A stretch of DNA of 64,000 nt from an uncultured Verrucomicrobiae bacterium (GTDB lineage: Bacteria > Chlamydiota > Chlamydiia > Chlamydiales > Rhabdochlamydiaceae): the NCBI GenBank assembly GCA_963718565.1, contig OY970364.1:1280001-1344000 (forward strand). The letters run 5' to 3'. The notes under the pieces are model-generated. The model ran no database searches and was not told the DNA's origin. It was given only the letters and a program-made list of their open reading frames with translations. The first letter of the stretch is position 1. Each line of letters begins with the position of its first letter. The translations under genes and the position numbers were made by a program. Shown here one piece after another: positions 10,081 to 11,889 of this stretch.

Positions 10081-11889
10081 TCATGTTGTTTCGGTATAGG
10101 TCGAATCAGGCGCTAATTTCGCCAATAGACGCAATGTGCGATAGCAAAAGAGGTATTGGTCCCGCGATTGCATCATGCTGTTGCACCGCCCCTCTTCTGG
10201 AGAACGTTGGCGTTGAAGACACCGCTTAACATCGACCTTTCCGGTAGGAAGATATTCAAACTGATCGATGAGCGTGATCAAGGCGCTCGTCCGCCCTACA
10301 CCCGCATGGCAATGCACGACGATGGGAGATATACTGCACTCGGCCTGAAACTTTGAATTTTGACTGGCTGCGACTTTGTCAAATCGATCCTCCCTTCGGG
10401 CTGGTTCATTTTCGTTCACCTGCTTTGCACTACGAAAGTCCACCGGACTTTCTCGTGTCTCCGCAGTCTCCTCACCCTGCCTGCTTGGGGCAGGGCTTCG
10501 TCGGTCGGAACGCTCTGCTTCGATTTGACTTTGTCTCGCTGAGTCAAAATTCAAAGTTTCAGGCCGAGTGCAGTATGCTGTATTCTCAGTGCGAAGCCCA
10601 TGGACTGTTTTTACGAGGTAAGCCGCCGCACGCTCATTGCCTGGTGAGAAATCACGCCAATTTTGATATTGGAAATGATTCACAATGCGCGCCTCTTTAC
10701 CCTCTTGCCAGATTCTCACTTTTCGATGAATAACGGCATGAGGTTCTTCTTCATGGGGGGCTTGACGCCAGCTAGGATCGGTTTTGAAAAAGGGCTTCTC
10801 GATTAATTCGAGATGGATTTTTCCATAGTTTTTTTTGTCCGATAATGAGAAAGGAAAATAGATATCATCGCCTGGATCAGTAAGACGATTCAGCATAATC
10901 ACAATCGATGCATTTTGCTCGAGGACCATCGACCAAAAATCTTCAGTAGTATGCGGCATAGGAGATTGTGTCCCAATGAACTTTTTGCCTAAGACAAAAC
11001 TCGCATTAATATAGCGGCCCGAATTCAATGGCACCAAGGTAGCATCGTAAGGAAAATTATTAAATGGGAAACGCGTAAACGGGTGATTGTCTTCACGCCG
11101 AGTAGTTTGCGAGTGAAGTTTGTAAACATCCTCATTGATCTGCGCATTCAAATCATTAATCTCAGAAAAAACATCTGCATCCGACTTGTCGAGTGCCACC
11201 AATGTTTTTTTCATTTCTTCCTTAGGAAGCAATTGAGGATAATTTTTTAGAAGCGAAATCCCTTCCATCCCTCCGTATCCTTTGCGGACCGACATCAAAA
11301 GATGGCCTAAACGATTGCACCCAGTTCCATCACTATCATCTGTCCAAAAAGGGTCCATTCTTTTTAAAGGGGTATGGAAAGAAAGGTAGGAGTCCATTGT
11401 CAAAAGAAGAAGGCGTTGAAGAGTGTAATTTTGACCAAACTTAGCGCGCAGAACATCAAGCATGACTATTTCTCGCTTCTCATACCATTCCCGGTTTTTT
11501 TCGAGATGCTTTTCCGCTGAAAAAGCCAAAGCTTTTTTTGCATCCAGAGTTTTGATCTGATTCGTCAGCTCACCATTTGGGGCAAACTTTTGAGCTTCGT
11601 AGACGGTTGTTGCGCATGTGTAATAGGTTCCTCCAAATTCAAAAGGAGCTGGACAGTCATTATCGAGAAAAGCGAAATAGGGATCGCAATTCTGGCCAAA
11701 CAAAATACAGCGGCCTCTAAGAGCTTTTGCAATCGTCTGTTCGAGATTTGTGGGCTGATACGGAGGTGGCGCACTTAAGACGTTTTCTTCAACTTTAGGC
11801 TCTTCTTTGTGCTCTTCCAAAATTTGGACTTCCAATGTTTTTGGCCCTGTATAAATGATGGAAGAGTCTACGATTCCTTTTACTGTCAT
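10081..11889 (-). CDS. NADAR (YbiA-like) domain fused to a classical protein-tyrosine phosphatase; candidate secreted effector; contains an in-frame 82-codon palindromic insert
   Basis: NADAR: YEAQKF...W...VMLDVLRAKFGQN...DPFW...GCNRLGHLLM. PTP: YINASFV, GTQSP, DFWSMV, WRD loop, VVHCHAGVGRT, MQSRDQYLFCY. Confidence 0.88.
   Translation of the reverse strand: MTVKGIVDSSIIYTGPKTLEVQILEEHKEEPKVEENVLSAPPPYQPTNLEQTIAKALRGRCILFGQNCDPYFAFLDNDCPAPFEFGGTYYTCATTVYEAQKFAPNGELTNQIKTLDAKKALAFSAEKHLEKNREWYEKREIVMLDVLRAKFGQNYTLQRLLLLTMDSYLSFHTPLKRMDPFWTDDSDGTGCNRLGHLLMSVRKGYGGMEGISLLKNYPQLLPKEEMKKTLVALDKSDADVFSEINDLNAQINEDVYKLHSQTTRREDNHPFTRFPFNNFPYDATLVPLNSGRYINASFVLGKKFIGTQSPMPHTTEDFWSMVLEQNASIVIMLNRLTDPGDDIYFPFSLSDKKNYGKIHLELIEKPFFKTDPSWRQAPHEEEPHAVIHRKVRIWQEGKEARIVNHFQYQNWRDFSPGNERAAAYLVKTVHGLRTENTAYCTRPETLNFDSARQSQIEAERSDRRSPAPSRQGEETAETRESPVDFRSAKQVNENEPARREDRFDKVAASQNSKFQAECSISPIVVHCHAGVGRTSALITLIDQFEYLPTGKVDVKRCLQRQRSPEEGRCNSMMQSRDQYLFCYRTLRLLAKLAPDSTYTETT
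10331..10576. mobile_element. MITE-like palindromic element (family A), 246 bp, in frame within the PTP gene
   Basis: Perfect 35-bp terminal inverted repeats at 10331-10365 and 10542-10576, internal hairpins, TA at the left junction. Confidence 0.88.

Follow-up and report, generated by a model that had tools for sequence, protein, structure and literature searches.

A miniature palindromic transposon inserted in frame inside the tyrosine phosphatase gene of a chlamydia-like bacterium

The DNA considered here is a stretch of 64,000 nucleotides, called the window, which covers positions 1,280,001 to 1,344,000 of contig OY970364.1 in the assembly GCA_963718565.1 of an uncultured bacterium of the Rhabdochlamydiaceae. 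The source genome (G000; its relatives are numbered from G001 onward) consists of one contig of 2,284,058 bp. The window contains a gene for a 602-residue protein combining a NADAR domain (residues 77-203; Pfam PF08719, 2.7e-14) with a classical tyrosine phosphatase domain (Y_phosphatase, PF00102), which is recognized at 6.1e-38 and 131.2 bits against a cut-off of 20.9. The phosphatase match falls in two stretches, residues 279-433 and about 519 onward, and the segment that splits them is encoded by a palindromic mobile element. Classical tyrosine phosphatases are defined by an HC(X)5R(S/T) P-loop, an acid-loop Asp and a Q-loop. The phosphatase motifs HCHAGVGRT, WRD and QSRDQY are present in the protein, W187 and D189 (domain numbering) are invariant, and the H, C, A, G, V, G, R and T of the P-loop are unchanged across G000 and nine orthologs. 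The analysis described below shows that the insert is a real and in-frame, apparently recent, insertion of a miniature transposable element with inverted repeats (MITE), and that its family behaves in this chlamydia-like lineage as the Rickettsia palindromic elements (RPEs) do in theirs.

The original prediction described an element of 246 bp, or exactly 82 codons, with perfect 35-bp inverted repeats and no stop in the frame of the phosphatase gene. The coordinates and the translation were both confirmed (Table 1). A repeat search found a single inverted pair, with arms of 57 nt at 10331-10387 and 10520-10576 that are 86% complementary. The match between 10332-10365 and 10575-10542 is 34/34 by blastn-short, and reading of the sequence shows the outer 35 nt to be perfect. 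In the gene frame, the 246 nt correspond to residues 439-520, a stop-free run of 82 residues that reads YCTRPETLNFDS...SQNSKFQAECSI and is followed by SPIVVHCHAGVGRT; the catalytic Cys527 comes seven residues after the last residue of the insert. The inserted peptide is strongly hydrophilic: 37% of its residues are charged, and its grand average of hydropathy (GRAVY) is -1.40. Of the element's six frames, two are open, and its six-frame translation holds no transposase gene, only the 82-residue read-through. The predicted RNA fold of the element has an energy of -124.6 kcal/mol versus a mean of -65.9 (sd 4.75) for shuffled sequences, a z-score of -12.35. Since none of 200 shuffles was as stable, the palindrome is not a product of chance. 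On the gene strand, the junctions read ACA G[CA]/TACTGCAC...GTGCAGTA/[TA] TCT CCC, where the slashes mark the element boundaries. The two flanking dinucleotides would be a 2-bp duplication of which one base has since altered (GTA to GCA, Val to Ala), for a net gain of 246 nt.

Table 1. Positions in the window of the insert, its host gene and the IS630-family element.
Feature	Position	Strand	Remarks
MITE proper, 244 bp	10332..10575	.	TACTGCAC end type; two inner hairpin modules; bounds from the family pattern TA/TAC...GTA/TA
Target duplication, left TA	10330..10331	.	part of the Ile520 codon ATA in the gene frame
Target duplication, right, now TG	10576..10577	.	gene strand: CA within GCA (Ala438), presumably a former GTA (Val)
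Terminal inverted repeat, left perfect arm, 35 nt	10331..10365	.	
Terminal inverted repeat, right perfect arm	10542..10576	.	
Host gene, 602 aa	10081..11889	-	NADAR and classical tyrosine phosphatase, the latter split by the insert
Catalytic P-loop HCHAGVGR	10291..10314	-	Cys527 codon at 10309-10311
IS630-family insertion sequence	42009..43128	+	351-aa transposase at 42069-43124; TA flanks at 42007-08 and 43129-30

A six-frame search for the phosphatase gene was carried out over 41 genomes, namely G000 and 40 relatives. The gene was detected in nine congeners (G001-G006, G014, G015 and G018), with 38-78% identity to G000. The element, far from being present in all orthologs, is absent from every one of these nine, and the stretches that match G000 to about residue 433-438 on one side and from residue 519-521 or so on the other are adjacent there. 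Excision of the 246 bp had been claimed to restore a normal junction, and the contiguity of nine out of nine orthologs at this site bears this out. Their open reading frames (ORFs) encode 488-587 residues, and the segment running from the helix ending in LR to P(I/V)VVHC counts 5-7 residues, versus 6 + 82 in G000. These genes are positional orthologs, because a 643-aa upstream neighbour gene is conserved beside them in all five loci checked. Nine loci retrieved by a related-locus search, probably from the same genomes as the nine congeners, are likewise devoid of the insert. The same picture emerges from a sequence search of the PDB, where an insert-free ortholog aligns in one stretch (e.g. 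PTP1B 3-277) and the G000 protein in two, split at the insert. The site, equivalent to keqfgq/dgpisvhc in the D2 domain of PTP-sigma, is a short loop whose sequence varies among orthologs. The insertion appears to be lineage-specific and, as judged by its perfect 34-nt arms, recent.

The original prediction also held that the element is mobile and belongs to a multicopy family, and the genome supports this view. A blastn search with the element yields 117 high-scoring segment pairs in G000; with six element queries, the matches merge to 97 places, 37 of them at least 125 bp long. The aligned copies have common ends, and nearly all full copies are bounded by the pattern TA/TAC(C/G/T)GCG...CGC..GTA/TA. 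An empty site could be read to the base in another host gene, which encodes a DUF455 protein: its orthologs in G001, G003, G005 and G013 read AAA TTN AAA versus AAA TTA/TAC...GGTA/TA AAA in G000, and the alignment gap is exactly 168 nt in the four orthologs, all with both sides present. Because of this exact empty site, the TA that flanks the members of the family is a target duplication. The insert in the phosphatase gene is itself a MITE, as judged by its 244 bp, its lack of a transposase gene, its terminal inverted repeats, the TA duplication and the many dispersed copies. No report of MITEs in chlamydiae was found in the literature searched, from which most subscription journals and supplements were missing.

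The phosphatase copy is only 71-73% identical to the other long copies of G000, which holds two remnants with the end type of the phosphatase copy. A copy in G013, located at an unrelated site between two TA flanks, is 90% identical to it over 247 nt and differs by 19 substitutions and two indels of 9 and 3 nt. Copies in G012 possess the same inner hairpin with the commoner end type. Three of the differences between the copies of G000 and G013 (L041, G013:C4) lie in the arms, at 6/243, 10/239 and 18/231, each mirrored on the other arm. As they are mirrored on both arms, these differences are older than the insertion. As a separate observation, such mirrored differences point to ends that change in step in master copies, or to the correction of one arm against the other. 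Within the genus, the element is found in eight of 18 congeners, and it was detected in none of the 22 genomes of other genera that were searched. A chlamydial origin is plausible. The chlamydial marker PF03504 had no match in G000, but neither did it match the control genomes, which deprives this result of weight. A second MITE-like family, beginning with GAGGGAATTGCAAAAC, was also noticed in G000 (22 places aligned, e.g. G000:C1 305292-305372, 556768-556847 and 2050933-2051012). This second family and the long form of the element studied here have an inner hairpin module in common, about 80 bp in size, a sign that the families exchange modules.

An assembly artefact, or a palindrome that arose by chance, would be the most trivial source of such an insert. 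Repeats can mis-join metagenome assemblies, and nothing more specific speaks for an error of this kind. The genome, on the other hand, is one 2.28-Mb contig, the TA ends agree with the rule of the family, the reading frame is kept to the base and a 90% identical copy exists in G013. In addition, positions 10363-10676, across the right junction, are covered without a single difference by a 314-nt contig of a public soil run, even if this contig may stem from the source sample and not be independent. An artefact can thus be set aside for practical purposes. The empty allele was sought as well in the contigs of four soil runs from one study, and none joins across the site; cover is patchy there, and these runs perhaps represent the source sample.

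The copies of the family that lie in genes obey a simple rule. In gene orientation, the frame reads xTA TAC ... GGT ATA, so that a Leu, Ile or Val codon has the target TA at its positions 2-3, and a new Ile codon is formed with the second TA. Both ends were found automatically in 30 of the 37 longer places and set by hand for the phosphatase copy, which gives a total of 31. Net length is divisible by three in ten of these 31 G000 copies and the gene-type frame is open in nine. All 21 copies with a net length that is not a multiple of three (169, 170 or other) have stops in the gene-type frame, and no long ORF contains any of them. The peptide of the open copies is (L/I/V)YRAQEGFVNLDSARQSTIEA...EEDRLGKAAASPNSQNLTERGI, and one subfamily, with net lengths of 168, 225 or 246 nt, maintains a single open hydrophilic frame. 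The residue before Tyr is L, I or V, from an xTA codon, in 15 of 16 other in-frame copies (7/7 in G000 and 8/9 in database proteins), the sole exception being a Ser in P0010.

The hosts of these in-frame copies are diverse. Among the eight ORFs of G000 scanned against Pfam, five have a family, namely an OEP/TolC-like protein, an FtsX permease, a TPS-domain protein with the insert at its C-terminal end, the DUF455 protein and TsaE; the three others are without one. The insert is absent from the FtsX orthologs in five out of five genomes. In the OEP orthologs, the match starts no earlier than query residue 76-80, past the insert (residues 24-80), and their complete open frames in four genomes encode 426-440 residues versus 481 in G000, while that of G004 ends early at 331. 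In the relatives, the hosts comprise a TilS-like protein, PriA, GreA, RNase R, a MiaB-like enzyme, an ABC ATPase and LpxK. A word-based search for the peptide (L/I/V)YRAQEGFVNLDSARQS...AASPNSQNLTERGI retrieved 24 database proteins longer than the query, six of which are from G000; SpoU, a P-type ATPase, an FAD oxidoreductase, a formyltransferase, a histidine kinase, a pseudopilin, MutS and an E1 dehydrogenase figure among the other carriers.

A profile built on seven peptides was also run against 1.84 billion representative sequences and found 139 proteins at E<=1e-3, 54 of them at E<=1e-10. At least 250 residues are present in 32 of the proteins found, as counted by reading the table. Of 27 that were scanned, 12 contain ordinary Pfam families (ThiF, DapB, PP2C, chorismate-binding twice, Pkinase, LigD primase-polymerase and others), three have spurious-looking matches and 12 have no family. 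One carrier protein possesses an anticodon-binding domain typical of tRNA synthetases. The suggestion that the element behaves like an RPE is thus well founded, as it enters unrelated genes in frame repeatedly, in one orientation and one phase. The hosts of 845 residues in G001 and 846 in G003 were considered as one old shared insertion and rejected, for the genes are unrelated and encode GreA and RNase R. No insertion common to two species was found, one candidate pair having been examined. A composite-looking insert of about 107 residues was observed in frame at the N-terminus of PriA (L070, G003:C1). Its usual end segments are separated by an additional one, which suggests elements that are nested or recombinant and yet allow read-through.

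RPEs (Ogata et al. 2000, 2002, as cited in PMC10969869 and PMC2229807) are the foremost case of in-frame MITE fusions. The comparison with them is right because the subfamily lies in frame in many unrelated genes, here and in the relatives. Both are short palindromic repeats of an obligate-intracellular type of lineage, inserted in frame in many unrelated conserved genes, and both add a family-specific peptide in one frame that is apparently tolerated. RPEs belong, however, to another phylum, and the likeness claimed here is one of behaviour and not of membership in the RPE sequence family. The present family has terminal inverted repeats of 34-57 nt, a TA duplication and an exact empty site, whereas PMC2229807 gives the duplication of RPEs as "?" and TA as "not in all". 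It is also modular and measures 166-244 bp, against 105-146 bp for RPEs.

Three other systems share part of these properties. The Correia elements or NEMIS of Neisseria are likewise TA-flanked MITEs with inverted-repeat ends. In PMC2229807, they are divided into two classes, one of 107 bp, which has an open frame and is often found fused within ORFs, and one of 155 bp, which carries stops in every frame and is intergenic. This partition matches the classes of 168, 225 and 246 versus 169 and 170 nt of net length found here. They differ in sequence and in host, and the present family has inner hairpin modules in common with a second MITE family. RUP of Streptococcus pneumoniae, tied to IS630-Spn1 by its similar ends in PMC2229807, also has a TA target, is non-autonomous and is presumed to be moved in trans by a transposase of the IS630 family. 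The ends of RUP closely resemble those of its insertion sequence, and it is described there as lacking an open frame; here, the likeness to the resident IS630 element stops at TACT. QMITE1 and QMITE2 of Coxiella burnetii, finally, reside in an intracellular bacterium, where they overlap with annotated genes, in some cases in frame, and give RNA stems of high stability. According to PMC5896051, they affect functional genes at 3' ends only, unlike the present family, of which several insertions are internal and one lies inside a catalytic domain.

Duplication of a TA is the mark of IS630/Tc1-mariner transposases. PMC2229807 is in line with this use of the TA duplication as a sign. The window contains an IS630-family element, and the original prediction proposed, on the basis of TA-TACT ends, that an IS630-type transposase mobilises the MITE. 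Several facts are in favor of this element as the source of the transposase: both duplicate TA and begin with TAC, the phosphatase copy shares TA + TACT with it, and it is the only TA-flanked insertion sequence identified in G000. It is also probably active, with about 15 near-identical copies overall; 11 full-length copies have 99.7-100% protein identity, and fragments occur as well. One copy, at C1:2260576, is flanked by TG on both sides and not by TA.

The resemblance does not extend further. By eye, the ends of the two elements diverge after these 4 nt, and other members of the MITE family end with TACC or TACG. No element-like ends were found by blastn-short with four element types at eight transposase loci, the IS locus of G000 and those of seven relatives. 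Within the genus, transposase and element co-occur poorly: homologs of the transposase (E<=1e-10) are present in four of nine element-bearing genomes, the other five being without, and in three of ten element-free congeners, several of these genomes being incomplete. Copies of the element are present and the homolog is absent in G003 (96% complete) and G005 (93%); old copies may nevertheless outlive their transposase. Solo element ends, seen at 16 places in G000, are followed by unrelated sequence, with no transposase gene having matching ends. The proposed mobiliser is accordingly not sustained by these comparisons, and it is doubtful that the IS630 element of the window supplies the transposase for this MITE family. 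Two of the solo ends, identical over 304 bp and 4 kb apart, occur at G000:C1:531486-537112. One solo-end region is interrupted by an unrelated 350-aa transposase-like ORF (C1:535828-536877), the whole forming a nest of mobile elements.

The effect of the insert on the phosphatase was evaluated by conservation and by modelling. The G000 protein keeps 76 of the 77 columns that are identical across the nine orthologs. In relative rate comparisons of G000 with G004, the counts were 16:15, 16:16, 16:13, 14:10 and 17:11 with five outgroups, and the branch of G000 does not exceed that of G004 in length. An AlphaFold2 model of residues 225-602, built on a 10-row alignment, has a mean predicted local distance difference test score (pLDDT) of 75.6 and a predicted template modelling score (pTM) of 0.73. 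The core reaches a pLDDT of 80-95 and the insert 41-67. In the model, the insert extends the preceding helix, then forms a helix, a disordered stretch and a helix back to the strand PIVVHC, with low-confidence helices at model residues 224-238 and 271-293. The best Foldseek matches of the model are classical phosphatases. With VIA-align, the model superimposes on the D1 domain of PTP-gamma with a Z of 24.3 and a root mean square deviation (rmsd) of 2.8 over 259/283 residues, and the values for PTP-gamma D1, AtPTP1 and SHP2 range over a Z of 23.6-24.3 and an rmsd of 2.6-3.2 for 255-270 residues.

These data can be confronted with the possibility of an adaptive remodelling, in which the 82-residue module would confer a new property (a binding surface, a regulation or a targeting) and be kept by selection. 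The open frame, the hydrophilic peptide, partly helical in the low-confidence model, and the conservation of the peptide end segments across many hosts could be read in this way. The conservation of the peptide is explained, however, by young copies being identical at the DNA level, the insert occurs in a single one of the genomes searched, no insertion common to two species was found with the one candidate pair examined, and the confidence of the model is low in the insert. The effector status given to the phosphatase in the original prediction is an assumption. Adaptive remodelling is therefore quite improbable, and the insert would rather be a tolerated passenger, neutral or mildly harmful.

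The best explanation for the whole set of observations, and a probable one, is the following. A non-autonomous, TA-duplicating inverted-repeat transposon would have jumped into a GTA (Val) codon of the gene for the NADAR and phosphatase protein, presumably moved in trans by a TA-specific transposase of IS630/Tc1-mariner type. Its landing site would be a short loop, bounded by the helix after the WPD-type loop and by the strand leading into the catalytic P-loop. The gene would have stayed open because the TA occupied codon positions 2-3, because the element and its duplication add up to 246 nt, and because the element has an open frame in this orientation. An extra 82 strongly hydrophilic residues are now encoded and would be translated as a poorly ordered surface excursion. 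The many in-frame copies would be survivors, as one out of six combinations of phase and orientation is open and hydrophilic, and the others would have been purged.

Several points weigh against this explanation. Resident transposases with ends matching those of the element are lacking. The TsaE case has the element at its 5' end, where it is maybe not coding, and the 338-aa host ORF L051, which matches no Pfam family and is without orthologs in the five genomes searched, was not counted as a confirmed gene. The insert of the phosphatase is unusually near the active centre, and most other in-frame copies lie near protein ends or between domains. The intact core of the model proves little, because the other rows of the alignment are without the insert and the core would be predicted anyway. 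The test of conservation has little power as well, because the perfect arms denote a recent insertion; such an insertion could correspond to a null allele that has not yet decayed. Finally, the 35-bp perfect stem could attract RNase III to the mRNA or slow down ribosomes.

According to one rival explanation, the insertion killed the phosphatase. The gene would then be an in-frame null allele, through misfolding of the P-loop region or destabilization of the mRNA by the hairpin, too young to have gathered stops or frameshifts. The end of the insert only seven residues before the catalytic Cys, its absence from all nine orthologs, the perfect arms that imply a recent event and the very stable RNA hairpin (-124.6 kcal/mol) are compatible with such a loss. 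Furthermore, G000 has no second phosphatase-domain gene that this query detects, the only other match being a NADAR paralog. Members of the same family nonetheless lie in frame within genes whose loss is hard to afford, namely those for LpxK, PriA, GreA and RNase R, as well as for a DapB-domain protein and an anticodon-binding-domain protein. Since reduced genomes can hardly dispense with these genes, the peptide and the hairpin must be broadly tolerated. The loop of insertion, 5-7 residues long in the orthologs, is variable in sequence, and the invariant columns are kept with one exception out of 77. A precedent is provided by an RPE-bearing guanylate kinase, which is translated and active with an altered affinity according to PMC2229807. 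A null allele is consequently rather unlikely, even if it deserves consideration, and the in-frame jump of a MITE that became a tolerated passenger is preferred.

A bolder extension of this explanation would see in the family a MITE lineage adapted to life inside genes. Its successful subfamilies would keep net lengths of 168, 225, 234 and 246 nt, all multiples of three, with one open hydrophilic frame and the TA at codon positions 2-3. They would swap inner hairpin modules, and their ends would change in step, as in the three differences out of three that are mirrored. This extension is speculative and is put forward with low confidence. If true, it would imply a selection acting on the element itself for compatibility with coding sequences.

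Some additional features were observed around the insert. A 148-bp palindrome (11931..12078, strand.), with 74-nt arms that are 76% complementary, lies 42 nt upstream of the ATG of the phosphatase gene. It is part of an unrelated repeat family with 85 matches in G000 and does not belong to the insert. A scan of 9800-12200 against Rfam found nothing in the element, and its sub-threshold microRNA-like matches correspond to this upstream hairpin. On the gene strand, a scan for terminators detected no such site within the element, with counts not above those of shuffles. The host protein is itself a fusion of NADAR with a eukaryote-like classical phosphatase. Its NADAR part has many paralogs in the genus, where it forms an expanded family, and most of the 14 matches to the phosphatase-gene query in G006 fall in this part.

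The behaviour of in-frame "selfish DNA" was best documented in Rickettsia, and it is now observed in a chlamydia-like lineage from soil. Here, the clean inverted-repeat ends, the TA duplication and the exact empty sites lead to an explicit and testable rule of survival inside genes, namely a TA at codon positions 2-3, a single orientation and a net length divisible by three. From a practical point of view, dozens of proteins in public databases carry the peptide of about 57-83 residues as if it were native, and masking of the element family would improve the gene models and the ortholog alignments of these genomes. The phosphatase case constitutes a natural experiment on the tolerance to insertions of the loop that precedes the P-loop of classical phosphatases. 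If the bolder extension proposed above, a MITE lineage adapted to life inside genes, is true, this chlamydia-like genus would hold a natural library of loop insertions, even in catalytic domains, and its MITE family would represent a second origin of the RPE phenomenon, one whose mechanism is clearer and whose cut-and-paste signature can be seen.

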